This document shows, one piece after another, positions 4,271-64,000 of a stretch of 64,000 bases of DNA. The stretch is taken from contig CAZQPW010000001.1 of the NCBI GenBank assembly GCA_964595305.1, positions 9,722-73,721 on the forward strand, read 5' to 3'. This DNA comes from an uncultured Candidatus Saccharibacteria bacterium. Lineage in GTDB: Bacteria; Patescibacteriota; Minisyncoccia; Phycocordibacterales; Phycocordibacteraceae. Numbering within the stretch: position 1 is the stretch's first letter; every line of letters begins with the position of its first letter. The notes beneath the pieces are model-generated. The model worked only from the letters and a program-made list of their open reading frames with translations, did no database searches and was not told the DNA's origin. The position numbers and the translations under genes are program-made.

Positions 4271-5512
4271 ATGGCCAAAAAGTCCAAGAAGCAGCGCAAA
4301 GTGTCAAAAAAGAAGACTCTCTCAAAAAAAGGGAAAAAGCCGCGATCCATAAAACGCGCACATCCAAAGCGTAAGATTTCAAAAAAGGCGCCTGCAAAAA
4401 AGCAGCAAAAGAAGGCTCCGGTAAAAAAGCTTTCAGATAAGCAACGCGCACTCGACACTAAGGCAACAAATCTAATTTCTCGTGGGAAACAGCGTGGTTA
4501 TATTACCTACAACGAAATTCTTAAAGAGTTCCCGACTATCGAAGAGAACGTGATGTTCCTCGAGGAGCTGTACGAGCGCCTCTCGGTAGCAGGCGTCGAC
4601 GTTCTTGAGTCAGGCGGTATGCTAGACGAGGTTCCAGACGACGTCGTGATGCGCGGTTCTTATCGCGGAGATAGCGGAGGGCACGACTCAATCCAAATGT
4701 ACTTGCGCGAGATAGGGCAGTACCCACTACTCTCTGGTCAAGAAGAGCGCGACTTGGCAAAACGTATCCAGAATGGGGATAAAGAAGCAGAGACACTTTT
4801 AGCGCGAGCAAACCTTCGCCTCGTGGTTTCAATTGCAAAAAAATACTCAAACCGCTCTAGCGACTTAACCTTACTTGACCTTATTCAAGAGGGGAATATG
4901 GGGCTGTTCCGTGCGGTTACCAAATTCGACTTTACAAAGGGATTTAAGTTTTCCACCTATGCGACGTGGTGGATACGTCAAGCGATAACACGTGCCCTTG
5001 CAGACCAGTCTCGAACTATACGTATCCCAGTGCACATGGTTGAGACGATCGCAAAGTATAAACAAGTCATGCGCAGACTTGAGCAAGACCTCGGGCGAGA
5101 CCCAATGCCCGAAGAAGTCGCAACAGAAATGGGAGTTGAGGTAGACAAAGTGTATCAAATTGAGCAGATCAACCAGGAGACGTTGTCTCTTGAGGCGCCA
5201 ATTACAACAGGTGACGATGAAGATGCTTCCCAGCGTGCTGACTTTGTCGCAGACCACACACTCCCATCGCCAGACCAAGAAACTGCACACCGGATCCTTG
5301 TGGACCAACTCGGAGAAATTATGGATGATCTCTCACCAAAAGAGCGCAAGATCCTCGGAATGCGTCACGGGCTCGATGACGGGGTTTACCATACGCTTGA
5401 GGAGGTAGGACAAGAGTTCGGGGTAACTCGTGAGCGCATCCGACAAATCGAAGCAAAAGCTCTCGATAAAATACGCACACACCAGAAATCCCGTCGCCTA
5501 AAAAGCTACTAA
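4271..5512 (+). CDS. rpoD: RNA polymerase sigma-70 factor (primary sigma) with ~55-aa lysine-rich N-terminal tail
   Basis: Region 2 ('[40 protein letters not shown]'), region 3 and region 4 ('[24 protein letters not shown]'). The N-terminus '[26 protein letters not shown]...' is K-rich. Confidence 0.9.
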
Positions 5513-5523
5513 GTTATACTTAA

Positions 5524-6345
5524 GTGGTGGGACATTCCAAATACCCGATAAAGCATTGGAGTTATTCATCGCTGCTCTCGTTTTTGCGAAACCCTCTCGC
5601 ATGGCATAAGCGCTACGTTGATGGTGTATACGATACCCCCTCAAGCCCATCTGGGGTTATCGGTCGAGCTGCGCATGTAGCTTTGCAGCACTATTATAGC
5701 GGGTTCAAGATCGAAGAGGCTGTAGAGATGGGTTTGGCAAACTTGCGCTCAGTCCCTGATTTTGAAATTGAGTTTGGAAAGCACACATCGAAACGTGCAA
5801 AAAAAGAGAGGCGTCAAAACATGGAGAAGGAGCTGGTACAGGCGGTCAAGTTTTATCTTGAACGGCCTCCTCGTTACAAAAAAATAGTGGGGGTTGAGGT
5901 TAGTTCTATATGTAAGCTAGATAGCATCCCGCTCCCTATAAAAGCGATTTCAGACCTTGTAGTAGTCTCTTCGGCGAATCCAAACTCATTGGATATCGTA
6001 GACCATAAGTTTGTCGACTCATTTAGCGGTCTTGCTGGAGATAAACCACTCTTCGTATTGCAGGCGCTATTTAACTACTATACTGTGCGCGAACTTTATA
6101 AAAAGCCCGTGAACAGGTTCATTATTCAAGAATGCAAAAAGCGCAAAAATAATGATGGTAGTCAGCAGTTACGGCGCTATGTTCTTTCGTATAAAGATAT
6201 GGAAGATGACTTTGTAGTCTTTCACCGCTTACTTAAGGATGCAACCGAGGAGATCCGCAGGACGCGGCACTATCTGCCGAACCCTTCTGACATGTTCGAG
6301 GGGAAGAATTCATTCGAAATCTACCGTCAGGGGCTTATCGGTTAG
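5524..6345 (+). CDS. PD-(D/E)xK nuclease superfamily protein (RecB/Cas4-like fold, no Fe-S cysteines)
   Basis: N-terminal 'HWSYSSLLSFLRNPLAWHKRYV' and 'LDIVDHKF' (D..D.K) motifs typical of the PDDEXK_1 family. Directly downstream of rpoD. Confidence 0.5.
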   Translation: MVGHSKYPIKHWSYSSLLSFLRNPLAWHKRYVDGVYDTPSSPSGVIGRAAHVALQHYYSGFKIEEAVEMGLANLRSVPDFEIEFGKHTSKRAKKERRQNMEKELVQAVKFYLERPPRYKKIVGVEVSSICKLDSIPLPIKAISDLVVVSSANPNSLDIVDHKFVDSFSGLAGDKPLFVLQALFNYYTVRELYKKPVNRFIIQECKKRKNNDGSQQLRRYVLSYKDMEDDFVVFHRLLKDATEEIRRTRHYLPNPSDMFEGKNSFEIYRQGLIG

Positions 6346-6349
6346 AACT

Positions 6350-7030
6350 CTAACGTAAAAGTGTGTCGACAACAGACTTAACTGTAGCAAATGGTTGCGC
6401 ACCCGGTAACGGGGTTGTTTTTCCATCTTTAGTAACTAGGATGTTATGAGGTGTACCTTGGCCGCCTGTTGTGCGCGCAGCATTGAAGTCATCTGTAATT
6501 CTTGCCTGTGTTTCACCGCTTGCCACGCAGGCTGCGTGTGCCTTAGAGTCTACACCGACCTGTGCGGCATATTCGCTTACGCGCGCCATGTCAGTTCGCT
6601 CGTTTAGTGGGGCCTTGTCAAAAAGTATATCTAGATACTTGAAGTATGCCTCATTCCCACCAAGTTTAGCTACACACTCTGCGGCTTCAGCGAGTTTTGG
6701 TGCATTTGGGTGTAATTGTTCAAGTGGGAAGTTACGTAATACCCACGCGACTTTGCCACTTGGGCCGTACTCAGCCAATATTTGCTTCATGGTTCCATGG
6801 AATTGTTTGCAAAATGGACACTCAAGATCAGTGTATTCAATAACTATCACATCGGCATTAGGGTTTCCTAGAATATGGTCAGCTGCCGTAACTGGTGGCA
6901 CAGACGCTTCTGGTTGCGCTGGAGCTTTGGGCGAAGCTTTGCCGACAAAAAATAATGAACCTGCAATAAGAGCACCTGCAACTACAATTGCGATTGGCAC
7001 TGCGAGCTGATTTTGTTGTGATGTTTCCAT
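6350..7030 (-). CDS. Membrane-anchored DsbA-family thiol:disulfide oxidoreductase
   Basis: N-terminal TM segment. Thioredoxin fold with 'CPFC' active site and the DsbA-like layout (EYTDLECPFCKQFH). Confidence 0.8.
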   Translation of the reverse strand: METSQQNQLAVPIAIVVAGALIAGSLFFVGKASPKAPAQPEASVPPVTAADHILGNPNADVIVIEYTDLECPFCKQFHGTMKQILAEYGPSGKVAWVLRNFPLEQLHPNAPKLAEAAECVAKLGGNEAYFKYLDILFDKAPLNERTDMARVSEYAAQVGVDSKAHAACVASGETQARITDDFNAARTTGGQGTPHNILVTKDGKTTPLPGAQPFATVKSVVDTLLR

Positions 7031-36977: not shown

Positions 36978-39227
36978 ATGGCAGAGTACGACCACAAAGA
37001 AATTGAAAAAAGGTGGCAGGAGGAGTGGCTCGCATCAGGTATTTACAACGCATCTGACGATGCGAGTAAAAAAAAGTTTTACGCGCTAGTAGAATTCCCA
37101 TATCCATCGGGTACTGGGTTACACCAGGGTCACCCGCGCCCATATACCTGTATGGACATTGTTGCAAGGAAGCGCAGGAAGGAGGGCTTCAATGTTCTAT
37201 ACCCCATTGGCTGGGATGCATTTGGACTGCCGACTGAAAACTACGCTATTAAAACCGGCAAGGATCCAAGAGTCGTAACTAAAGAAAACACAGACTACTT
37301 TAGAAAGCAAGCGCAGGCTTTTGGCTTTTCGTTCGACTGGTCACGCGAAGTGAACACCACAGACCCGAAGTATTATAAGTGGACGCAATGGATTTTCATT
37401 CAACTTTTTAAAAAAGGGTTGGCGTACAAAGCTACTGTTCCGATAAACTGGTGTCCAAAAGATAAAATTGGCCTAGCCAATGAAGAGGTGGTTGATGGCT
37501 GCTGCGAGCGCTGCGGGACTAAAGTTGAAAAACGCGATAAAGAGCAGTGGATGCTCGCTATCACTAAATATGCAGACAGGTTATACGAGGATATCGACAC
37601 CGTCGACTATCCTGACCGCGTCCGCGCGCAACAGAAGAACTGGATAGGGAAAAGTGAGGGAGCTGAAATTGATTTCGGACCAATCACTGTATTTACCACT
37701 CGGCCAGACACACTGTATGGTGCAACGTACGTGGTAGTTGCACCTGAGCATCCTATCGTAGCTGCTCACCCTGAGGCAGAAGCGTACGTAAAAGAGGCGA
37801 AAAGAAAAACGGAAATCGAGCGAACTGCAGAAGGTAAAGAGAAGACCGGTGTTCCACTCAATCTAAAAGTTAAAAACCCTGCAACAAACGAAGAGGTCCC
37901 TGTTTGGGTTGCAGACTATGTACTCGGCCACTACGGAACCGGTGCGGTAATGGGTGTACCGGCACACGACGAGAGAGACAAAGAGTTTGCAACTAAATAT
38001 GACATCGAAATCCGTGAGATTGAGTTGCAAGATCCGAAAGTCATGACAGAAAAGTTTGGTAAGGCAGTCACTAAGTTCAAGCTCAAGGACTGGGTATTTA
38101 GTCGCCAGAGGTATTGGGGCGAACCGATACCGATGGTTCATTGCGAGAAGTGTGGCTGGCTGCCTGTCCCAGAAAGTCAGCTCCCCATTGAGTTGCCCTA
38201 CATTGAAAAATACGAACCAACTGACACCGGCGAGTCGCCATTGTCAAAGCTAGGCGACTGGATTACCACGAAGTGTCCGCAATGTGGTGGGGAAGCAAAA
38301 CGCGAAACAGATGTGATGCCAAATTGGGCAGGTTCAAGTTGGTACTACATCAGATACATGGACCCTCACAATGATGCGGCCATTGCAGGCCCTGACAAGA
38401 TAAAATACTGGTCTCCGGTTGATTGGTACAACGGTGGCATGGAACATACCGTTCTCCATTTGCTGTACTCTCGTTTTTGGCATAAGTTTCTATACGACAT
38501 CGGTGTTGTTCCAACTGCCGAACCATATGCAAAGCGCACCTCCCATGGCCTTTTCCTGGCGGCAGATGGTGAAAAAATTTCAAAGTCCAAAGGGAACGGT
38601 ACTGACCCGATAGAAATTATTAACACATTTGGAGCTGACGCTACCAGGCTCTATGTAGCGTTTATAGGTCCCTTTGAGCAAGCGGTCCCGTGGCAAAATG
38701 AAGGACTAGTTGGCACACTCCGTTTTATTGAACGAATAGTAACGTTATCTCAGAAGGTTGCCGACGGGGAAGATGTACCACCCGTCGTTCATCAAACAAT
38801 TAAAAAAGTTGGTGAAGATATTGAATCTGTAAAGTTCAATACTGCAGTATCGCAGCTTATGATCTGTACGAACGAGCTTGTTGCAGCAGAAACAGTTTCT
38901 CGCGCATCATATGAAATTCTTCTCAACCTCCTCGCGCCATTTGCACCACATGTTACAGAAGAGCTTTGGCGCAAGTTGGGGCACACCAACTCTATCCACC
39001 TCGAGCCATGGCCTAGTTTTGACCCCAGTAAGCTTGAAAGCGAGACGGTAACTGTTGCGGTACAGGTGGGAGGAAAGCTGAAGGGTACTATTACAACACT
39101 TCGAGGTACGAACGAAAAACAAATCCTAGAGCTTGTAAAACAAGATCCGCAATTGTCAAAAAAGGTTCCTGTTGAGCCACGGAAAGTCATTTTTGTGCTT
39201 GACAAGGTCATAAATTTCATTGCCTAA
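36978..39227 (+). CDS. leuS: Leucine--tRNA ligase (compact, 749 aa)
   Basis: HIGH-type 'HQGHPRPY', CP1 editing hallmarks 'TTRPDTLYGATYVVVAPEHP' and 'GTGAVMGVPAHDERD', KMSKS-type 'KISKSKGNG'. Confidence 0.95.
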   Translation: MAEYDHKEIEKRWQEEWLASGIYNASDDASKKKFYALVEFPYPSGTGLHQGHPRPYTCMDIVARKRRKEGFNVLYPIGWDAFGLPTENYAIKTGKDPRVVTKENTDYFRKQAQAFGFSFDWSREVNTTDPKYYKWTQWIFIQLFKKGLAYKATVPINWCPKDKIGLANEEVVDGCCERCGTKVEKRDKEQWMLAITKYADRLYEDIDTVDYPDRVRAQQKNWIGKSEGAEIDFGPITVFTTRPDTLYGATYVVVAPEHPIVAAHPEAEAYVKEAKRKTEIERTAEGKEKTGVPLNLKVKNPATNEEVPVWVADYVLGHYGTGAVMGVPAHDERDKEFATKYDIEIREIELQDPKVMTEKFGKAVTKFKLKDWVFSRQRYWGEPIPMVHCEKCGWLPVPESQLPIELPYIEKYEPTDTGESPLSKLGDWITTKCPQCGGEAKRETDVMPNWAGSSWYYIRYMDPHNDAAIAGPDKIKYWSPVDWYNGGMEHTVLHLLYSRFWHKFLYDIGVVPTAEPYAKRTSHGLFLAADGEKISKSKGNGTDPIEIINTFGADATRLYVAFIGPFEQAVPWQNEGLVGTLRFIERIVTLSQKVADGEDVPPVVHQTIKKVGEDIESVKFNTAVSQLMICTNELVAAETVSRASYEILLNLLAPFAPHVTEELWRKLGHTNSIHLEPWPSFDPSKLESETVTVAVQVGGKLKGTITTLRGTNEKQILELVKQDPQLSKKVPVEPRKVIFVLDKVINFIA

Positions 39228-47976: not shown

Positions 47977-49767
47977 GTGATGACCGTAGCAGAAATCAGG
48001 CAAAAGTATTTTGACTATTTTAAGGCGCGAGGGCACGTACTCATTTCAAGCGTTCCGCTCGTGCCAGAAAACGACCCAACCACGCTTTTTGTAGGCTCAG
48101 GAATGCAGCCGCTATTACCTTACTTTCTTGGTGCGCCACACCCAATGGGTACGAGGGTGGTTAACGCACAACTCGCGTTCCGCGCTGAAGATATAGAAGA
48201 AATAGGCGACAACCGGCATACATCTTCTTTTGAAATGCTTGGCAACTGGTCATTTGGTGACTATTTTAAGAAAGAGCAAATCCCGTGGATGTTTGAGTTT
48301 CTTACGAAAGAGCTTGGTATCGACAAAAGCAAACTGCATTTTACCTGTTTTGAAGGCGACGATGGTTTAGGTATCCCAAAAGACACCGAGTCGTACGAGC
48401 TCTGGAAATCCTGCGGTGTTGAGGAAAGTCACTTGTACTATTACCCAGCTAAAAAGAATTGGTGGAGTCGCGCAGGGGTACCGGCAAACATGCCACCAGG
48501 CGAGCCGGGAGGCCCGGACACTGAAATGTTTTTTGATTTCGGTACACCGCACGACGCGCGTTTTGGAGAGTCGTGTCATCCAAACTGCGACTGCGGTCGC
48601 TTTGTGGAGATTGGTAACAACGTGTTCATGGAATATATCAAGAACGCAGATGGGTCGTTTTCAAAATTGCCTAAGGCAAATGTAGATTTCGGCGGAGGGC
48701 TTGAGCGCATTGCAGCTGCAGTAAACGGAAAGCCCGACATTTTTCTTATTGACACTCTACTTGGAACTATCCGCGAGTTGGCAGCAGCGTCGGGTAAGGC
48801 ATACGACGACCCCAAGTTTCAAAAGTCGTATCGAGTAATTGCGGACCATATCAAAGGCGCGGTGTTTATGATTGCAGATGGCGTACTTCCGTCAAATACC
48901 GAGCAAGGGTACGTTTTACGCAGATTAATACGCAGGTTTGTGCGTCACATGGATATTTTGGAAGTAAAAACCGAAACGCTTGGCCGCGTCGTTGACCAGA
49001 TCGCTCAATCATATAAAGCACAGTACCCACGTGTTACTGATAACTCGAAAATCCTGCTCACCATTATTGAGGAAGAGGCACGCTTTCGAAAAACGCTCGC
49101 ACAAGGAATGAAAGAGTTTGAAAGAGGAACCGATCCGTTTATTTTATTTACGACATACGGTTTTCCTATCGAATTAACTCAAGAGCTAGCAGCGGAACGT
49201 GGGCAGACAGTTGACATAGAGGCATTTAAACAGGCTATGACAAAACATGCCGACGACTCACGTGCTGGCTCAGAGCAAAAATTCAAAGGAGGACTTGCAG
49301 ATACAAGCGCAACCACCACTGCGCTACATACCTCGACACATTTGATGCTTGCCGCGTTGCGAAAATTTTTAGGTCCACATGTGCATCAGGCAGGATCAAA
49401 CATTACCGCAGAGAGAACCCGATTCGATTTTACGCATGGAGAAAAGGTGTCGCACGATGTGCTCGCTAAGGTGGAGGCATATGTAAACGAAGCGATCGAG
49501 AAACGCGCTGTAGTAACTATTGAGCAAATGCCTAAGCAGGCTGCTCGCGACGAAGGGGTTGAGGGAAGTTTCTGGGAAAAATATCCTGATGTGGTGCAGG
49601 TATATACTGTGCGCGCACCAGACGGGACCGTATATTCACGAGAGCTCTGTGGTGGACCGCATGTTGAGGAAACCGGAGCTATAGCAGCAGTAGGTACGTT
49701 TAAAATTATAAAAGAGGAAGCGTCATCAGCAGGTGTTCGCAGAATCAAAGCCGTGCTTCAAAAATAG
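47977..49767 (+). CDS. alaS: Alanine--tRNA ligase lacking C-terminal C-Ala domain (596 aa)
   Basis: Class II catalytic core ('FEMLGNWSFGDYFK'). Editing-domain 'HTSTHLMLAALRKFLG' (HxxxH) and 'CGGPHV'. Confidence 0.9.
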   Translation: MMTVAEIRQKYFDYFKARGHVLISSVPLVPENDPTTLFVGSGMQPLLPYFLGAPHPMGTRVVNAQLAFRAEDIEEIGDNRHTSSFEMLGNWSFGDYFKKEQIPWMFEFLTKELGIDKSKLHFTCFEGDDGLGIPKDTESYELWKSCGVEESHLYYYPAKKNWWSRAGVPANMPPGEPGGPDTEMFFDFGTPHDARFGESCHPNCDCGRFVEIGNNVFMEYIKNADGSFSKLPKANVDFGGGLERIAAAVNGKPDIFLIDTLLGTIRELAAASGKAYDDPKFQKSYRVIADHIKGAVFMIADGVLPSNTEQGYVLRRLIRRFVRHMDILEVKTETLGRVVDQIAQSYKAQYPRVTDNSKILLTIIEEEARFRKTLAQGMKEFERGTDPFILFTTYGFPIELTQELAAERGQTVDIEAFKQAMTKHADDSRAGSEQKFKGGLADTSATTTALHTSTHLMLAALRKFLGPHVHQAGSNITAERTRFDFTHGEKVSHDVLAKVEAYVNEAIEKRAVVTIEQMPKQAARDEGVEGSFWEKYPDVVQVYTVRAPDGTVYSRELCGGPHVEETGAIAAVGTFKIIKEEASSAGVRRIKAVLQK

Positions 49768-54913: not shown

Positions 54914-55267
54914 ATGCGACATCACAATACAAACAGAAAATTCCGACGAGAGGCAACACAGCGTAAAGCGTTTTTGACGTCGCTTGCAGAAGCTATCATC
55001 CTAAAGGAAAAAATTCTCACTACGGAAGCGCGTGCTAAAGAAACTAAAAAAGTAGTTGAGCCTCTTGTAACTGCAGCTAAGAACCCATCCCTCGCAACTC
55101 GCCGTAAACTGATCGCAAAGCTTGGTAACCGTGACCGTGTGGCCAAGAAGCTAATCGACATCCTTGGTCCAAGATACAAGTCTCGTGCAGGCGGCTACCT
55201 TCGCGTCACAAAAGTATTTAAGAAGTCGTCCGACGCGCGAAAGCACGCACTACTAGAATTCGTCTAA
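54914..55267 (+). CDS. rplQ: 50S ribosomal protein L17
   Basis: 'MRHHNTNRKFRREATQRKA', operon position. Confidence 0.9.
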   Translation: MRHHNTNRKFRREATQRKAFLTSLAEAIILKEKILTTEARAKETKKVVEPLVTAAKNPSLATRRKLIAKLGNRDRVAKKLIDILGPRYKSRAGGYLRVTKVFKKSSDARKHALLEFV

Positions 55268-55268
55268 T

Positions 55269-55637
55269 ATGAAAACCACAAAACCAAAGCCTACAGAGTT
55301 CCATATCGACGCGGCAGGTAAAACGCTCGGAAGGGTCGCGTCTCAAGCTGCTACCTACCTTATGGGCAAAAACCGCGCAGACTTTGCTCGACACATAGTA
55401 CCAAATGTACGCGTCACCATTTCAAACGCAAATAAAATCTCGATCACAAGCAAAAAGCTTGCGTCGACCGTGTACAAAAGTTATTCTGGTTACCAGGGCG
55501 GACTTACAATAGAGTCGCTCGAGATGCTTAGAAAGCGACGTGGTATGAAGGAAGGAGTTAAGCGCGCGGTTCTCGGTATGATCCCTCGGACAAAAATTCG
55601 ACCAGAAATGATGAAGCACTTAACGGTAACAGACTAA
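55269..55637 (+). CDS. rplM: 50S ribosomal protein L13
   Basis: 'FHIDAAGKTLGRVASQAATYLMGK'. Confidence 0.9.
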   Translation: MKTTKPKPTEFHIDAAGKTLGRVASQAATYLMGKNRADFARHIVPNVRVTISNANKISITSKKLASTVYKSYSGYQGGLTIESLEMLRKRRGMKEGVKRAVLGMIPRTKIRPEMMKHLTVTD

Positions 55638-55639
55638 CT

Positions 55640-56032
55640 ATGGCAACCTCTAAATTTATTGAAGCAGTAGGACGCAGAAAAACATCATCAGCGCGTGTCC
55701 GTATCGTAAAAAATGCTAAGCCATCACTCATGGTTAATGGCAAAAGTGTTGAAGAATATTTCAGCACACCTGCACTTCAGATGCTTGCTCGAGCTCCACT
55801 TTCAGCTGTTGACGAAACGTTTGCTGTTACCGCTATCGTGCGAGGCGGTGGGATTGCAGGTCAAGCCGCAGCAGTACGCCATGGTATTGCACGCGCACTC
55901 GTGGTACACGATGGTGAGCGCCGCACCGAGCTCAAGAAGGCCGGACATCTTAAACGTGACCCACGTGCAAAGGAGCGCCGCAAGCCAGGACTCAAGAAGG
56001 CGCGCAAGTCTCCACAGTGGAGCAAACGTTAG
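55640..56032 (+). CDS. rpsI: 30S ribosomal protein S9
   Basis: 'GRRKTSSARVRI' and C-terminal 'PRAKERRKPGLKKARKSPQWSKR'. Confidence 0.95.
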   Translation: MATSKFIEAVGRRKTSSARVRIVKNAKPSLMVNGKSVEEYFSTPALQMLARAPLSAVDETFAVTAIVRGGGIAGQAAAVRHGIARALVVHDGERRTELKKAGHLKRDPRAKERRKPGLKKARKSPQWSKR

Positions 56033-56052
56033 CGTGTTGCTATACTTAATTT

Positions 56053-56580
56053 ATGAGCGATGACATAATCATTGATGATGAAGGTGATTTAGGTGAGGGC
56101 GAAAAGACTGCCGAAGCTAAGTTAAAAACTCTACGAGATAAGTTAAAGGCAGAGCAAGCAGAGTCTGCCGCCAACTTGGATGGGTGGCAACGCGCCAAAG
56201 CCGACTACGTAAACCTAAGCAAGCGTCTACGGGAACTTGAAAGTGATGTCAAAGTATCAGTGACTAGAAATGTCGTAGACTCTCTCTCACAGCTTGGCGA
56301 CTCACTCGAAGCGGCACTCTCGCATGCAGACCAGGCCCACAAAGTAGGCATCGATGCACTTATTAAGCAATTTGACACATCTCTTACAGCAATAGGCGCC
56401 TCACGTTTTGCGCCTACTGTTGGTGGAACCTTTGACCCGCTTACTCATGAGCCAGTCCAAACACTTGCAACAAGTGACCAGACATTAGATAATACTATTG
56501 CGCAAGTGGTACAAAGTGGCTATAAAGTTGGTGAGGACATAGTTCGCCCAGCAAGAGTCATGGTGTACCACCACCAATAA
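56053..56580 (+). CDS. grpE: Nucleotide exchange factor GrpE
   Basis: Coiled-coil N-terminus then the GrpE beta-domain ('[12 protein letters not shown]'). Immediately upstream of dnaK. Confidence 0.85.
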
Positions 56581-56603
56581 TTACAAAGCAAACAACCAAT
56601 ACT

Positions 56604-58469
56604 ATGGCAAAAATTTTGGGAATTGACCTTGGAACTACAAACTCCGCAGTCGCCGTCGTTGAAGGTGGCGAGCCTCGTATTATTGAAAATGCGGAAGGTA
56701 ATCGCACGACCCCATCAGTAGTAGCTCTTGCGAAAACTGGAGAGCGTCTTGTTGGACAAATTGCACGCAGGCAAGCAGTAACTAATCCTAAGAACACGAT
56801 ATACCAGATTAAGCGCTTTATCGGACACACTTTCGACGAGGAGGCGGTTCAAAAAGATAAGGCCGCGATCCCATTTGATATTCAGAAGTCTGCTAACGGT
56901 GGCATCGAAGTAAAAATGGGCGAACAGTGGTACCGCCCAGAAGAGATTTCTGCAATGATCCTGTCTAAACTAAAAGTTGACGCAGAAAAAAAGTTGGGCG
57001 AACAGATCACGCAGGCTGTTATCACTGTCCCTGCGTACTTTAATGACACTCAGCGCCAAGCGACAAAAGATGCCGGCAAGATAGCAGGACTCGAGGTGCT
57101 ACGTATCATCCCTGAGCCAACAGCTGCAGCGCTCGCTTACGGCTTTGATAAGAAAAAAGATCAAAAAATAGCAGTGTTCGACTTTGGTGGGGGTACGTTT
57201 GACATCTCCGTGCTCGAGGTGGGAGCAGACGTTATTGAAGTTAAGTCAGTAGACGGCGACTCTCACTTGGGAGGTAAAGACCTCGACCAAAAAATAATGC
57301 AGTGGATCGGGGATGAATATAAAAAGGAGTCTGGAATCGACGTGCTTACCGACCCCTTGGCAAAGCAACGTCTCGACGAAGCTGCTGAAAAGGCAAAGAT
57401 CGAGCTCTCAACTGCACAGGAAACTGAAGTTAACGTGCCCTTTATAACGTCAGACGCATCAGGGCCTAAACACTTGCTTCTAAAACTTACGCGAGCGAAA
57501 CTTGAAGAAATTGCACGAGACTTCATCGATCGCTCAATCTTGATTACACGCCGCGCAATGGAAGCTTCTCCATTTAAGGTTGGTGATATTGACGAGGTGG
57601 TACTTGTGGGAGGACAAACTCGAATGCCCGCAATCCAAAAAGCTGTTGAGGATTACTTTGGCAAGAAAGCTCATCTTGGAGTAAACCCTGACGAAGTTGT
57701 TGCTATGGGCGCAGCCATCCAGGGAGGAATTCTTGCTGGTGACGTTAAAGATATCTTGCTTCTAGATGTAATCCCCCTTTCACTTGGTATCGAAACTATG
57801 GGTGGCGTTAACACCAAGCTTATCGAGCGCAACACCACGATTCCAACTTCAAAGTCGCAAACATTTTCAACCGCTGCAGACAACCAAACCAGCGTTGAGG
57901 TGCACGTGGTGCAGGGTGAGCGAGCTATGGCAAACGACAATAAGTCGCTCGGGAGGTTCCATCTAGACGGAATTCCGCCGGCTCCACGAGGCATGCCACA
58001 GGTTGAGGTCACCTTTGATGTCGATACTAACGGTATTCTTAAGGTCACCGCTAAAGACAAAACGACCGGTAAGGAGCAGACCATCCGCATTGAAGCGCGC
58101 TCAGGTTTAAGCGAAGCTGAGATCGAAAAGATGAAGCAAGATGCGGCTGCCCACGAAGCAAGCGACAAAACTGCGCGCGAGCTGGCAGAAGCGCGCAACC
58201 TGAGCGACTCTATGATTTATACCGCTGAAAAATCACTCAAAGACGCCGAAGGTAAGATCGGTGACGATATAAAAACGCAGGTTACCACAGCTATCGATGC
58301 CTTAAAGAAAGTAAAAGACGGCGGCGACCTCACTGCGATAAAGTCTGCGAACGAGTCGCTGTCAGCAGCGATGCAAAAGATCGGTACCGCGATGCAGGGC
58401 CAGAACCAAGCACAACAGGGCACTCAGGAAAAAGGTCCGGACGAGCCAAGAGATGTAAACGCTTCATAA
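56604..58469 (+). CDS. dnaK: Molecular chaperone DnaK (Hsp70)
   Basis: '[12 protein letters not shown]', 'DLGGGTFD' and '[10 protein letters not shown]' Hsp70 signatures. Confidence 0.97.
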
Positions 58470-58470
58470 C

Positions 58471-59538
58471 ATGGACTACTACGCTGTACTTGGTGTAGAC
58501 AAAAGCGCATCGCAAGATGATATCAAGAAGGCGTTTCGAACGCTTGCACACAAATATCACCCAGACAAAAAAGGTGGTGACGAAAAAAAGTTTAAAGAGG
58601 CAAGTGAGGCGTACGCGGTTTTAGGTGATGCAAAAAAACGGGCAGAATATGACCAGTATGGTCGTGTCTTTTCTGGTGCTGGCAGCAATGGAGGCGCGCA
58701 AGGGTTTGAGGGGTTTGATTTTTCTCAGTTCGGTGGATTTGGTGGCCAGGGCGGATTCGAGGTAAACATTGAAGACCTATTCGGAGGAATGTTTGGAGGT
58801 GGTAGGCAAAGTAGGCGCCGTGGACGCGACGTATCTATCGATATTGAACTTTCGTTCAAGGAATCAGTCTTTGGTGCTACACGCACTGTTGTGTTAACTA
58901 AAGACACCGCGTGCAACACCTGTGATGGTTCTGGAGCAGAGCCTGGGTCAAAGCTCGTTGAGTGCAAAACCTGCAATGGTAAAGGCCAAGTAGTCGAATC
59001 ACAGCGCTCACCATTTGGGACGTTCTCTGTTGCACGTACATGCGACACGTGTAAAGGTAAGAAAAAAATCCCAGAAAAGAAGTGTCATTCATGCAAAGGC
59101 GCGGGTGTAGAGCGGCGCGAAGTTGAGGTAACCATTGAAGTGCCCGCAGGAATTGAAGATGGCCAAGCAATTAGACTTTCCGGAGATGGGGAAGCTATGC
59201 AAGGTGCCGAAGCCGGAGATCTCTACGTAAAAGTACATGTCATACATGATAAGAAATTCCGCCGGGAAGGCTCCACCATTGTAAGCGACCTCTCTATTAA
59301 AGTTACTGACGCACTTCTTGGAGCAACATACACCATTGAGTCTGTCGATGGTCCGCTTAAAATAGACATCCCACCACTTAAAAAGGGCTCTGAACTCTTA
59401 CGTGTAAAAGGCAAGGGTGTGCCTACTTCGCCAGGAAAGCGCGGCGACTTTATCATCCATGTCTCTGTAGAGTTTCCAAATAAGCTATCGAAAGAATCGA
59501 CCGAGCTAATCAAAAAGCTGCAAAGCGAAGGACTCTAG
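58471..59538 (+). CDS. dnaJ: Molecular chaperone DnaJ
   Basis: J-domain 'HPD' ('KYHPDKK'). G/F region. Four CxxCxGxG zinc-finger repeats. Confidence 0.95.
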
Positions 59539-60042
59539 CTACTTGCTGAAAAAGAAGGTCGCAACTAATGGAGCGACAAGCCACGCAAAGTAATATGCAG
59601 GCGGCTGAAATATTTGAAGTGCTTCAGGACTAAAGGGATATATCGCTGCTATTGCAGGCGTATGTACCGCAAGCGCCATTGCAAGCCCAGCGACCGTAAC
59701 CGCATATATGCTCGTTTTGACCGTGCCCAGAACAGCAACAGGGCTGTAAAGACCAAGCTGTATGAACGCCATATATGAGCACAACACTACTATTCCGTAC
59801 AAGACAGGTGCGGCAAATGAACCCACGAGCACCTCTTGGAAAGGGAAGTTAACGTAAAGCACAGTGCCCGCATAAAGTGCTGCGGTGAGCGCAAGCAACT
59901 TATCTCTACCAAACATAAACGCTATAAATACAGTAAGGATCAAGAGGAGCAGGAACGCGGACATATCTGCAGCTGCACCGAGTGCGACGTCGCTCGCATA
60001 TGAAAACCATTCAACAGCCCCAGCTGGCATATACAACTGCAT
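59539..60042 (-). CDS. Integral membrane protein (4-5 TM), hypothetical
   Basis: 167-aa hydrophobic ORF convergent with dnaJ. Confidence 0.45.
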   Translation of the reverse strand: MQLYMPAGAVEWFSYASDVALGAAADMSAFLLLLILTVFIAFMFGRDKLLALTAALYAGTVLYVNFPFQEVLVGSFAAPVLYGIVVLCSYMAFIQLGLYSPVAVLGTVKTSIYAVTVAGLAMALAVHTPAIAAIYPFSPEALQIFQPPAYYFAWLVAPLVATFFFSK

Positions 60043-60093
60043 ATATATACTGTAACGTGCGGCTGCACTGTGTGGTCTCCTTTTCCACCTACT

Positions 60094-61321
60094 TTATTTT
60101 ATATATAATATTTCATCATCAGGTGCTTTCGCGCTTTGCCAGAAGAATGGGTATGGATTTGTGGGAACAAAATAGGTGCCGAGAGTATCAAATGAGTATT
60201 TACGTTGGCGAACGACAAGCAACTTTTTATCTTGAGAAAATATGCCAATATCGATGTTTGCACGGTGCGGGTGAGACAAAAAGTTTATGTAGTCACCATT
60301 GTAAAGCGTGGTAGTGCTTGTGCCGTCGAGGCGGACCACACGATTGTATGTATAGCCTTGTTCTTCACAACCGCCGACAGGAATAACCGGGATGCAAAAA
60401 CCGAACTTGAATTCGCGCACACTTTCGACATGTGGCTGCGTAACACCCTTTGGTCTCGTTTCTGGAAGCGGGTCAGACTTAAAGATCGGGGGGGGTGTAT
60501 TGTTTATTTGGTATTTGCCACACCCTTCAGATATTGCCCATATATCGGTGTCTTTGAGATGATATCTATTAAAATATTGACATGTTCTCTCGCGACTTAG
60601 ATCAAACAGTATATAATCTACAATCTCTCTCTCTCCCTCTCTCAACTAAGTTTCCGCTTAAATCGTACACTCTGCGTATTAGTGCTAACTTTGTGATTTT
60701 GTTGCCATTCCCTTCAATAGGGAGCACTTCAAGGAACCCGAATGTGGTTGTAGAGAAAGTGATGAATGATCCCTCATATGCATACCCGGTCATATGCTGG
60801 ATCGCTGAAAGTGTGTCGGCGGTCCCCCTTTCATACTTAATTGCATAGTCTGCAAGATTGAGAAGCGGGATGGACACCATTTTAGTTGTTGTCCCTCCCC
60901 CATACTTCCAGATTTCATATGTACCTGTAGTGGTCGAGACACGGTTCCAAATTACTGATCCATCAGCTAGTATGCCAGTCGATGCTTTTGTCCACCGCAA
61001 TACTTGCTCGCCAGAATAAACGCCCTCTCTAATTTTTTTATTTTCAGGCATTTCTATACCATGCTCCTTTGAGTTTGGTATGACGGTTTCCTTCATTGAG
61101 TTTCCTGCGCCATATTCAATGAGTACCAAGTCGCCTCTATCTACTATCACTTTCCTGCCATCTAGTGAAAGGGTATCAAAAAGTGGTTGGTGAAAAAACG
61201 TGAAATTAATTGCTGCCTGCATTAACCCGAAGAGTATTAATACCCACACAGGACTCGTGAGGCCGATGGCCCACCACTGCCAGGGTTTGAGTTTTTTCAG
61301 GATAGTATGCCACCTACTCAT
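60094..61321 (-). pseudogene. Surface/membrane-anchored protein gene interrupted by a frameshift inside a (TC)6CC(TC)3 tract (candidate phase-variable gene)
   Basis: Upstream ORF 60602-61321 (TM anchor + ectodomain) and downstream ORF 60094-60645 (no ATG; begins inside the repeat) overlap exactly at the pyrimidine tract 60624-60643. A +2 or -1 nt change would fuse them into a protein of about 400 aa. Confidence 0.5.
60624..60643. repeat. Dinucleotide tract 'TCTCTCTCTCTCCCTCTCTC' ((GA)n on the coding strand)
   Basis: Seen directly. Lies at the junction of the two overlapping minus-strand ORFs. Confidence 0.9.
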
Positions 61322-61454
61322 GCCTCCAGCATAGCACTTGCATGGAAATGGGCAACGTGGTAGCGTGAGTGTGTGAACCAGCTGCTACCCGCACATGGCT
61401 TCGCCACAAACTATCCTCCAAACTCGGAGGACATTGTGAAAGTTTTCATTATTC

Positions 61455-61490
61455 CCGCACAGTAGTGCGGGTTCTATTTATTTTAAATTT
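61455..61490 (+). terminator. Terminator-like hairpin + T-tract abutting the protease start codon (possible attenuator)
   Basis: 'CCCGCAC-AGTA-GTGCGGG' followed by 'TTCTATTTATTTTAAATTTTT', 2 nt before the ATG at 61493. 'CCCGCACA' also occurs at 61389. Confidence 0.35.
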
Positions 61491-61492
61491 TT

Positions 61493-64000
61493 ATGCACTT
61501 ACGAATCACTGCACTTTTTCTTATCATCATCCTTTCAATCCCCCAGCATGCCGTTGCAAGCGATTCGTTACCAGAGCACATTCTTAAGCAGCAAAACGCT
61601 AAGATTCTAGAAGTCCGATCGAGCGTATTCCTTGATGAGTCGGCACCAACATCGCTTGATGTGAAAATAAAAGCAGCAAGAAGTAAGGCTGAGTCAGGAG
61701 CAAGCGCTGAACGTGCAGCACTAAAAGCTGCTCGCAAGGCGGAAGGGGCAGGTTTTGCAACATCTACAAAATCAAAATCGCTCCAAAAGCTCCGCGCTTA
61801 TAACGACACTCTTAAGCGCAACCTGGACAGTGAGCTTACAAAACTCACATCAGAGGAGCGCTCACATATTCAGCAAGTAGAACCAAACTATTTGTACACC
61901 GAAGACGCGTATCTCCCTAACGATGTAGACGTAACGACGCAGTGGGCACTTAGAGCAGTAAATGCGCAGCAACAAACTATTTTTGATACTACGCCAACGC
62001 TTACACGCAAGGTGATTGTAGCAGTAATAGATAGTGGCATTGACTATATGCATGAAGATTTGAACGGCAGTATGTGGTCGAGTGCAACGTGTGTAGACTC
62101 AGTCGGCGCACCGATCGTAGCGGGCTGCACCAATGGGTATGACTTTTTAAGTAACGATGCCGACCCGTACCCGACAGAGGGGAATGGGCACGGGACCGCA
62201 GTCGCCTCACTAATTGCTGCCCAGACTGACAACGGCAAAGGCATCGCAAGTCTTTCCCAAAACCGCGCGCGCATCATGTCGCTCAGGGTCTCTGACGGTA
62301 ACGGAGCGTCGCTTGACGCCATCGTGCCCGCAATTTACTTTGCAGTTAACAACGGCGCCGACATCATCAACATGTCGCTCTCGGGGCCGACGTACTCGCA
62401 AACGATGGCGAATGCAATTACATTTGCAGAGAGTCGCGGCGTTACGATAGTTGCTGCAGCAGGTAACTATGGGTCGAGTAATGATGTTACACCAATGTAT
62501 CCCGCGAGTTATACAAACACAAATGTCATAGCAGTTGCTGCTACCGATAAGGATGCAAAGCTGGCGGCATTTTCAAACTACGGCAGCTCGGTCGATGTGA
62601 GTGCACCTGGAGTGGGTATCCGAGCTGCTCAGCCAGGCAACGCGTATGCAAGCCTGAACGGAACTTCATTTGCAGCGCCAATCATCAGTTCGTACATTGC
62701 GCGCGGAATAAGCGAAGGCAAAACGCCAATACAAATTATTTCTTCAATACCAAACAAAGTGCTTGGTTCCTATGTTGGTGCTGCAGGGGCCGCACTTCCT
62801 GCTTCGGCATTCGTCCGCATGCCTGATGGTCGCCTTTTTAATACAACAGCAAAAGGTGGAGAATATGTTGACGGGTACACGCTGGACTGCACAGTTAACT
62901 GCATTGGCGACAGCACGCTCGGCTTGGCTTCACAAATTTCTCCTGGAACAACGGATTTTAATAACCCGACAGCTGTAACCACTCTTACTCCGGTATTGAC
63001 ATGGAGCAGCGTAGCAGGAGCAGGAAGTTATGGTGTGTATCTCACCGATGTAACAACAGGCGCGACGGTGCTAGGCTTGACGCAAGATGTTCGCGCCGTG
63101 TCTTTAGGCACGGCATTTACTACGCCTACACTTATTGCAGGGCACGTGTATCGATGGAACACAGCGGTGCGCAAAACGACAACTGCAAGCACGAAAGAAA
63201 ATCTGACCCCAGTGTGGTATTTCCGTCCGCAGTCTGGCAGCACTCCTCCACCAACTACGCCACTTACTGCCCCAACATCAATGTCCCCCGGCAGTAGTGC
63301 AGCGCCAGGTCCAGTGCTTTCAAATACAGTTACTGCATCCTGGAGCAGCGTCGCACCCACAGCTACAGCACCTGTGACGCAATACAACATCGCGTGGCGC
63401 GACTTGTCTCAAGCAACGCCGCAAGAAGCGTACACAAACACAACAAGCTATTCTATAACAGGACTCATTCCTGGCAGATCATATCGCATGGACGTTGCGG
63501 CATGCAACGCCCTCGGATGCGGTCCGCGATCATCAAACTTTTACTTTACAGTCTCAAGTGGAACCAATGTGCCACCAACAGTTCCTGTTATCACAGGCTC
63601 AAGTAACAGCGAGGTAAATAAACTTTTTGTCCTCTCGTTTCAAACTAACGACGACACAGACCCGCTCCGCTTAGACGTGCGCTGGTTCACCACTGCTGAT
63701 CCTAACTACTACGAACCGTGGGGCGGCATGCATCCAAATTTCCCCGCAACGCTTGCGCATACGTACTCGACGCCCGGCTCATATTGCGTAACCGCGCGCG
63801 CATACGACGGCCAATACACTACAGCATGGAGCCCATGTTACAACGTTACGATAGGTGCGGGGAGCCCAGACTTAATTTTAAATTCCATCAACCCAGGCGT
63901 GAGTATTACTACGCCTGGTAGTTCAAACACCGCGACAGTGGTGGTGAAGAATAACGGTGTAGTAGCTGCCGGCGCGTCAACCGTTGCCCTTTACATTTCT
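61493..64000 (+). CDS. Secreted subtilisin-like serine protease (S8) with FN3-like, PKD-like and CARDB-like domains (3' end outside window)
   Basis: Signal peptide 'MHLRITALFLIIILSIPQHAVA'. Catalytic triad contexts 'VAVIDSGID', 'GNGHGTAVAS', 'GTSFAAPII'. FN3-like 'TWSSVAGAGSYGVYL' and 'YSITGLIPGRSYRMDV'. PKD-like 'HTYSTPGSYCVTARAYDG'. CARDB-like 'DLILNSINP...TATVVVKNNG'. Translated by hand; absent from the ORF table because it has no in-window stop. Confidence 0.85.
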   Translation, partial: MHLRITALFLIIILSIPQHAVASDSLPEHILKQQNAKILEVRSSVFLDESAPTSLDVKIKAARSKAESGASAERAALKAARKAEGAGFATSTKSKSLQKLRAYNDTLKRNLDSELTKLTSEERSHIQQVEPNYLYTEDAYLPNDVDVTTQWALRAVNAQQQTIFDTTPTLTRKVIVAVIDSGIDYMHEDLNGSMWSSATCVDSVGAPIVAGCTNGYDFLSNDADPYPTEGNGHGTAVASLIAAQTDNGKGIASLSQNRARIMSLRVSDGNGASLDAIVPAIYFAVNNGADIINMSLSGPTYSQTMANAITFAESRGVTIVAAAGNYGSSNDVTPMYPASYTNTNVIAVAATDKDAKLAAFSNYGSSVDVSAPGVGIRAAQPGNAYASLNGTSFAAPIISSYIARGISEGKTPIQIISSIPNKVLGSYVGAAGAALPASAFVRMPDGRLFNTTAKGGEYVDGYTLDCTVNCIGDSTLGLASQISPGTTDFNNPTAVTTLTPVLTWSSVAGAGSYGVYLTDVTTGATVLGLTQDVRAVSLGTAFTTPTLIAGHVYRWNTAVRKTTTASTKENLTPVWYFRPQSGSTPPPTTPLTAPTSMSPGSSAAPGPVLSNTVTASWSSVAPTATAPVTQYNIAWRDLSQATPQEAYTNTTSYSITGLIPGRSYRMDVAACNALGCGPRSSNFYFTVSSGTNVPPTVPVITGSSNSEVNKLFVLSFQTNDDTDPLRLDVRWFTTADPNYYEPWGGMHPNFPATLAHTYSTPGSYCVTARAYDGQYTTAWSPCYNVTIGAGSPDLILNSINPGVSITTPGSSNTATVVVKNNGVVAAGASTVALYIS

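Follow-up and report, generated by a model that had tools for sequence, protein, structure and literature searches.

The 64-kb stretch of DNA analysed here (the window) carries, between positions 60094 and 61321, two minus-strand open reading frames (ORFs) that share 44 nt (60602-60645) at a short GA dinucleotide repeat, and that we regard as the two halves of one split gene (Table 1). The upstream ORF is predicted to encode a short cytoplasmic tail, a membrane helix (residues ~13-41) and the first part of a beta-rich ectodomain; the downstream ORF encodes 4 Cys residues and the C-terminal end ...EILYIK. A credible start is missing from the downstream ORF: it contains no ATG, its first in-frame GTG comes only ~75 codons in, and its sole start-like codon, a TTG (60645-60643), borders the GA tract with no convincing ribosome-binding site ahead of it. 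A preliminary description of this DNA had reported the overlapping pair and the missing ATG, both of which were borne out, and had calculated that gain of one repeat unit or deletion of 1 nt would fuse the pair into a protein of about 400 aa; indeed, one added GA yields a 409-aa ORF and one removed nucleotide yields 408 aa. Its picture of a membrane-anchored product with a Cys-containing ectodomain agrees with the predicted helix and with the Cys content of the downstream ORF.

Table 1. Features of the split gene and its flanks, in window coordinates.
Feature	Position	Strand	Remarks
Upstream ORF	60602..61321	-	ATG start, 239 aa, N-terminal half; ends at TGA 60604-60602
Downstream ORF	60094..60645	-	TTG start, 183 aa, +1 frame, C-terminal half
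Frame-change bracket	60605..60645	-	41 nt, of which 20 nt are GA tract; also holds (TA)3
GA tract GAGAGAGGGAGAGAGAGAGA	60643-60624	- (coding)	Perfect (GA)6 at 60635-60624; proposed slippage site
(TA)3 run TTATATA	60616-60610	-	Inside the bracket; gain of one TA also restores the frame
C8 homopolymer	60488..60495	- (coding)	Codes T-P-P-P; predicted low-confidence linker; now in frame
Multi-pass membrane protein, 167 aa	59539..60042	-	51 nt downstream of the split gene, same strand; no real Pfam match
Secreted subtilase	61493..64000, runs off window	+	Divergent neighbour; signal peptide, Peptidase_S8, FN3, CARDB (Pfam)

The position of the frame change can be delimited from the stop codons on either side of it. 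The +1 frame is shut by a TAG (60648-60646) immediately 5' of the tract, and the 0 frame by the TGA that ends the upstream ORF, 7 codons past the tract, so the change of frame must lie in the bracket between them. The earlier statement that the frameshift falls 'exactly at' the tract is unproven in its exactness: the TA run lies inside the bracket too, and one more TA unit would mend the frame just as well. Reading of the TGA as a sense codon under another genetic code was considered and rejected: readthrough meets a TAA 10 codons on, in the wrong frame.

On the plus strand the tract reads TCTCTCTCTCTCCCTCTCTC (60624-60643), its perfect part being (TC)6 at 60624-60635, and in the present off state it is translated as E-R-G-R-E-R-D. 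It is the sole dinucleotide run of at least 5 units in the window, every other such run having 4 units. All three Arg codons of the tract are AGA, although in the window's genes just 13.7% of Arg residues are specified by that codon, and the probability that R-E-R would be coded wholly as GA is 0.009; the repeat is thus not a by-product of the peptide sequence. The split gene has a second potentially slippery repeat in the C8 run, the only G/C homopolymer of at least 8 in the window; it lies in the same linker that carries a polymorphic G8/G9 run in the closest relative (see below).

The same tract length is found in a Logan assembly of SRR8797213, whose contig L001 matches the window over 59709-61587 with zero indels and is identical base for base to the deposited contig over 60094-61321. 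The preliminary description had listed a sequencing or assembly indel among the possible causes; an assembler-specific error is accordingly unlikely. The only mismatches of the Logan contig are at 59722 and 59725, remote from the tract. Contig L001 stops at 59709, and these two single-nucleotide differences fall in the neighbouring membrane-protein gene, which hints at strain-level variation in the sample just past the split gene.

A homology search with the fused protein, proposed earlier as a check, found single, full-length homologues that span the junction. This exhaustive phmmer search against 1.84 billion representatives returned 11 matches, a small family in which the homologues are single proteins of 380-501 aa. 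The alignments of P0003 (380 aa, 35-37% identical) and of P0004 (501 aa) run through the junction of the two ORFs, residues 92-318 of P0003 pairing with fused residues 114-346. The separate halves behave likewise: by BLASTP the upstream ORF matches P0003 residues 1-218 (E=6e-46) and the downstream ORF matches residues 252-349 (E=1e-4), in colinear order, and phmmer places the downstream ORF colinear with the C-terminal halves of both P0003 and P0004. Its members have in common a hydrophobic helix near the N-terminus and a DTLSLxGR motif, and in their C-terminal half they keep a Cys pair and the end ILY[IL][KR]. Because the homologues are single proteins with the same N-terminal helix and the same C-terminal end, the two ORFs are best understood as halves of one gene. 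Pfam gave zero matches to the fused protein and Rfam zero matches over 55000-64000; protein searches by word index, whether started from the fused protein or from the family alignment, returned almost only the query's own halves, a metagenome scan for the family recovered only P0003's own contig, and two scans of genome contigs yielded zero true relatives. One apparent relative, L006 from a Muribaculaceae genome, was discarded as a false positive without a matching ORF.

An AlphaFold (AF2) model built from a 10-sequence alignment, weak overall with a mean predicted local distance difference test (pLDDT) score of 58, shows residues 13-41 as a helix, then a beta domain modelled with fair confidence at 55-234 (pLDDT 65-91), a disordered linker at 236-294 and a second beta region at 297-408. 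The GA tract, at residues 229-236, would then mark the end of the first beta domain. The fold is probably beta-propeller-like, a tentative assignment given the low mean score.

Splits at this position recur among the homologues. In L002, from a JGI metagenome, the gene is divided into a 213-aa ORF and a downstream ORF in the +1 frame at a (GA)7 tract (site sequence GAGATGAGAGAGAGAGAGAAAGAGAGAGACC), with the +1-frame stop just 5' of the tract and the 0-frame stop 4 codons past it, an anatomy like that of the window. L004, which comes from another JGI sample and shares 71% protein identity with L002, has (GA)6 and its downstream half lies in the other frame. The P0007 contig carries two ORFs with a 41-nt overlap at the same alignment position, the second in the +1 frame; here the overlap of the ORFs and the ...GKEREIYSF tail are our sole grounds for inferring a GA tract. 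P0008 (462 aa) is intact and has GGAGAGGAGAGAGAGAGAC at the site. GA tracts at the homologous position are found in L002, in L004 and in the group L003/L007/L008/L009/L010, and the GA-bearing lineages form three separate branches in a neighbour-joining tree of the N-terminal domain, so that the tract is either ancestral and lost several times or has been gained repeatedly. P0004, P0005, P0006 and P0009 have no repeat at the site and are all intact, with the lack of a tract confirmed in the DNA of L011 and L012. P0003, the window's closest relative, is also without a GA tract and has G8 in a 15-residue insertion right after the site. Within the P0003 lineage, L005 has G8 (1565-1572) in an intact 380-aa gene, and L013, 98% identical to L005, has G9 (~70-78) and is split there. 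Every one of the six split cases (the window, L002, L004, the P0007 contig, a (GA)5 group described below, and L013) coincides with a simple repeat, although for the P0007 contig that repeat is inferred and not seen, and the repeat at the splits spans ~1-2% of the gene.

Simple repeats also occur elsewhere in these genes. P0004 (L011), intact and tract-less, contains the short repeats (AC)5, (AT)5 and C7 at 6128-6137, 6942-6951 and 7021-7027, and the family as a whole seems rich in them. Right behind the P0008-like gene stands a tandem paralogue (L008 4602-6035, corresponding to L007 2095-3186) of 477 aa that shares 59% identity with P0007; its homologous site is occupied by A7 (GGTAAAAAAATT), and an (AT)6 at 5450-5461 is in frame.

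Direct evidence that the repeat length is polymorphic in a natural population comes from the 90%-identity cluster of P0008, in which intact and split forms are both present. The contigs of this group derive from 0.1-um filter fractions of groundwater from the Hainich wells H51 and H52. L003 and L008 have (GA)6 (...GGAGAGGAGAGAGAGAGAC) and an intact gene of 462-466 aa, and L007, L009 and L010 have (GA)5 and a split gene, the rest of their sequence being ~100% identical to L003/L008. L007 and L008, compared over 4.86 kb, show no indel other than the GA unit, and in well H52 the replicates R1 and R3 are not in the same state. Patescibacteria make up 54-78% of Hainich 0.1-um fractions (PMC8672522), which is only circumstantial evidence on the organisms involved. 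Two G>T changes in L007 make stop codons; they were rejected as real lesions and are probably oxidative-damage or low-coverage artefacts, as this contig has 3x coverage.

The split copies have not decayed. Between L002 and L004 the ratio of nonsynonymous to synonymous substitution rates (dN/dS), with each half read in its own frame, comes to 0.17 upstream and to 0.11 over the part of the downstream half that is available; dS is near saturation, and pN/pS (the uncorrected proportions) is still <0.3. The downstream part analysed includes 18 codons ahead of the first ATG, and the low ratios over it indicate that the downstream half is kept as coding sequence, entered from the tract, despite both copies being off. 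In the window the downstream frame stays open for 183 codons and keeps the conserved Cys and the terminal motif. The signs expected of a decayed pseudogene are therefore missing from the window, where there is a single frame change, and from the split homologues, where dN/dS is well below 1.

Taken together, these observations make it probable that the window holds a slipped-strand, phase-variable gene for a membrane-anchored surface protein, and that the copy present is in its off state. The two ORFs would be one 409-aa gene for a membrane-anchored ectodomain protein, a member of a small unannotated family found beside giant secreted S8 proteases, and the GA repeat in the linker between the halves would serve as a slipped-strand mutational switch, each unit gained or lost in replication shifting the last 170 codons into or out of frame. 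What the window shows would be the off phase, one unit short, in which the stop 7 codons past the tract leaves a 239-aa anchored N-terminal fragment, and the C-terminal half, having no start codon of its own, would go unmade. This fragment is probably non-functional if the ectodomain is a single propeller. The predicted helix, the beta-rich ectodomain, the Cys pair and the conserved position next to giant secreted S8 proteases point to a product that may be surface-exposed.

Two features expected of a phase-variable gene are seen here: the reading frame contains a simple repeat at the point of its loss (20 of the bracket's 41 nt, with the (TA)3 run sharing the bracket), and one added unit gives an ORF that aligns across the junction with P0003 and P0004. 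Repeat number is polymorphic among homologues ((GA)6/(GA)5 and G8/G9); the window's own tract has the same length in its two assemblies. Of the options in the preliminary description, a contingency locus gains strong comparative support, from the splits at the tract in L002, L004 and the P0007 contig and from the (GA)6/(GA)5 polymorphism. By extension from its homologues, the window's own tract presumably switches. Such switching would be reversible and frequent, as the low dN/dS in split copies and the occurrence of off states in different frames indirectly suggest, and it may be adaptive, for example in avoiding phage or host contact. Surface-contact proteins of ultra-small groundwater bacteria are thought to mediate host-cell attachment and phage exposure.

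This interpretation must be tempered by several points. Tracts of (GA)5-7 are short for efficient slippage in repair-proficient bacteria. The window's own tract is equally long in both assemblies, of which just two exist, possibly from the same reads, and neither a length variant nor the fused 409-aa form of the window gene was present in the protein collections searched. The homologue contigs have only 2-5x coverage; in L007, 4 of the 6 mismatches to L008 are G>T (L008 3605, 4779, 4799, 5691), and L003 and L008 may come from one and the same sample. The weak structural model leaves the description as a surface beta-propeller tentative. Lastly, the frameshift is bracketed only to 41 nt, and the 0-frame tail DCRLY resembles DFRLY of P0003 (chance ~0.2%), which would put the lesion in the adjacent (TA)3.

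That resemblance speaks for what we consider an unlikely though serious alternative, a fixed frameshift outside the GA tract, caused by loss of a TA from a (TA)4 at 60616-60610 or by another small indel in the bracket. The window gene would then be a recent pseudogene or truncated allele and the GA tract a bystander, although a later GA gain could compensate. The 0-frame tail D-C-R-L-Y is colinear with its counterpart in P0003, only 0.17% of out-of-frame 7-mers from the window match the P0003 linker as well, and LY stands just past the tract in L002 and L004 too; adding a TA to TTATATA gives ...ERGRERDCRLYILFDLSRER / ...ERDCRLYILFDLSRER, joining both homologies seamlessly, and an on variant of the window gene is missing from the protein collections already mentioned. 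Whole-protein Smith-Waterman comparison of the TA repair with the GA repair, however, shows no preference for TA (P0003 +2; P0004 -11, P0008 -2, L002 -3), and the IVDY of the +1 frame suits the family motif [IV]xD[YF] (P0004 HIPDY, P0003 VKDF). A (TA)3-4 run is expected to slip far less than (GA)6-7, a second lesion is absent across 183 codons, and wherever the change can be pinned in homologues it is in a GA or poly-G tract. Since longer repeats slip more and the repeat tract is the variable site in those homologues, we consider the GA tract roughly three times as likely as the TA run to be the site of the change; gain of one GA restores the frame under either history. Recoding seems to us improbable. 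It would have the split allele work as it is, full-length protein being made by ribosomal slippage on the GA repeat (-2/+1, with GAG/AGA re-pairing two bases away) or by RNA polymerase slippage. The same +1 state is indeed found in four of five off lineages (the window, L002, the P0007 contig and the L007/L009/L010 group), selection on each half is purifying though most copies are split, and the Shine-Dalgarno-like GGGAG within the tract, a purine-rich element before the 0-frame stop with the downstream part at +1, recalls programmed +1 frameshifting of the prfB type. Yet the frame relation is not conserved: L004 is in the other frame, and L003 and L008 carry the same tract in alleles that are in frame. 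Apart from the repeat itself the lineages share no conserved element, and the sequence past the tract is not conserved either; GGGAG is not followed by a defined shift codon, nor is there a conserved slippery codon, and no stable RNA structure flanks the tract (z = 0.62 vs shuffled controls). A bias towards +1 would also be expected from the contraction bias of repeat slippage. On account of these differences from the prfB type, we do not class the window gene as a programmed frameshift.

The remaining two explanations are less probable still. A sequencing or assembly indel in a gene that is really intact might be suspected because short repeats are classic sites of consensus error, several of the homologue contigs have low coverage and L007 shows its G>T artefacts, but we think it very improbable: besides the agreement of the two assemblies of the window, splits of the same kind occur in independent projects and assemblers (JGI, ENA, Logan, NCBI), and the identical (GA)5 allele occurs in three separate Hainich assemblies. 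Least probable of all, in our judgement, is that there are two genuine genes whose halves are translated separately and then assemble. The preliminary description had held that homologues occurring as two genes with proper starts would speak against a switch, and superficially they do occur, gene callers giving a downstream ATG in L002 (position 3049) and in L007 (MSIHD...). However, the L007 start Met is internal in the intact allele, in L002 and L004 the codons ahead of the ATG show conservation at the protein level, and split and intact forms coexist at ~100% nucleotide identity. In the window, moreover, the downstream ORF has no adequate start, as set out above, and its product would be without a membrane anchor yet carry the conserved Cys pair.

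A wider reading is possible, which we put forward tentatively and with less than even confidence: the linker of this family may be a selectively maintained switch module in which various simple repeats, namely GA runs in three branches, poly-G in the window's closest relative and possibly the A7 and (AT)6 of the paralogue, take up the same small group of codons and toggle a membrane-anchored partner of giant secreted S8 proteases. It would be the first contingency-locus system in ultra-small groundwater bacteria, probably Patescibacteria.

Repeat-driven phase variation is textbook material for host-adapted pathogens of Haemophilus, Neisseria, Helicobacter, Campylobacter and Mycoplasma, and in H. 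pylori the outer-membrane protein genes sabA, sabB and hopZ are switched by CT repeats. In the same species, slipped-strand mispairing in the CT repeats of oipA/hopH is described as altering the number of units and thereby setting its frame (PMC10564699). Like oipA, the window gene has a CT/GA repeat of a handful of units in the coding region of an envelope protein. Unlike the H. pylori repeats, which lie 5' in the signal-peptide region so that almost nothing is made in the off state, the present tract lies in a mid-gene linker and leaves a 239-aa fragment; the protein family and the habitat also differ, the organism is uncultured and environmental, and switching is predicted from sequence. 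In Mycoplasma mycoides, an (AG)12 repeat in the ORF of the Type III methyltransferase MmyCI leads to premature termination and was read as phase variation (PMC3498834). Both genes have AG/GA repeats within an ORF, but MmyCI is a cytoplasmic restriction-modification enzyme with a tract twice as long, and no evidence is given there that members of a divergent family have a switch at one shared position. Helicobacter canadensis has simple repeats inside genes that change or truncate the C-terminal part of the product (PMC2823697). There, too, the repeats are within the gene and not at its 5' end, but they are homopolymers in a host-associated pathogen, and the alternative frame of the window gene is closed after 7 codons and so provides no alternative C-terminus of any length. 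The mechanism is thus already known; what is new is the family, the environmental setting and a switch that recurs, with different types of repeat, at a single linker. In the collection of papers searched, none links the terms 'Patescibacteria' and 'phase-variable'. If our interpretation is correct, stochastic on/off control of a surface protein extends to uncultured bacteria with small genomes that live in nutrient-poor groundwater, and the switch offers a concrete handle on a family of unknown function tied to giant secreted proteases. It would also carry a lesson for annotation, in that genes of metagenome-assembled genomes split at short repeats are not automatically errors or pseudogenes.

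The neighbourhood of the split gene supports a link to such proteases. In L011 (1-5999) only 2 nt separate the family gene from the end of a preceding gene for a 2579-aa S8/FN3/CARDB/LCAT protein, in L012 (2-2353) the LCAT-type part of such a protein adjoins it, in L008 (6570-7369) an S8 gene lies downstream, and in L002 and L005 a LamG-domain gene precedes it. The position of the family gene beside very large secreted proteins in at least 4 loci suggests a functional partnership, and the link of the family to large secreted or surface proteins looks conserved. In the window the divergent neighbour is the subtilase, whose single long ORF leaves the window and accounts for the otherwise ORF-poor region 61322-64000; a ribosomal RNA or other non-coding reading of that region was rejected. 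The divergent intergenic region that separates the subtilase from the split gene is 171 nt long and contains a GC-rich hairpin (CCCGCACAGTAGTGCGGG, 61454-61471) followed by a T-rich tail, which could be a terminator-like element, an operator or an attenuator. The 167-aa membrane protein on the other side may be co-transcribed with the split gene; it is absent from the neighbourhoods of L002, L005, L008 and L011. The window as a whole is ordinary bacterial chromosome, with genes for RpoC, DnaG, RpoD, ATP synthase, LeuRS, AlaRS, S4, RpoA, L13, S9, GrpE, DnaK and DnaJ. Its AlaRS (596 aa, 47977-49767) and LeuRS (749 aa, 36978-39227) are short for bacteria, which fits a reduced genome.

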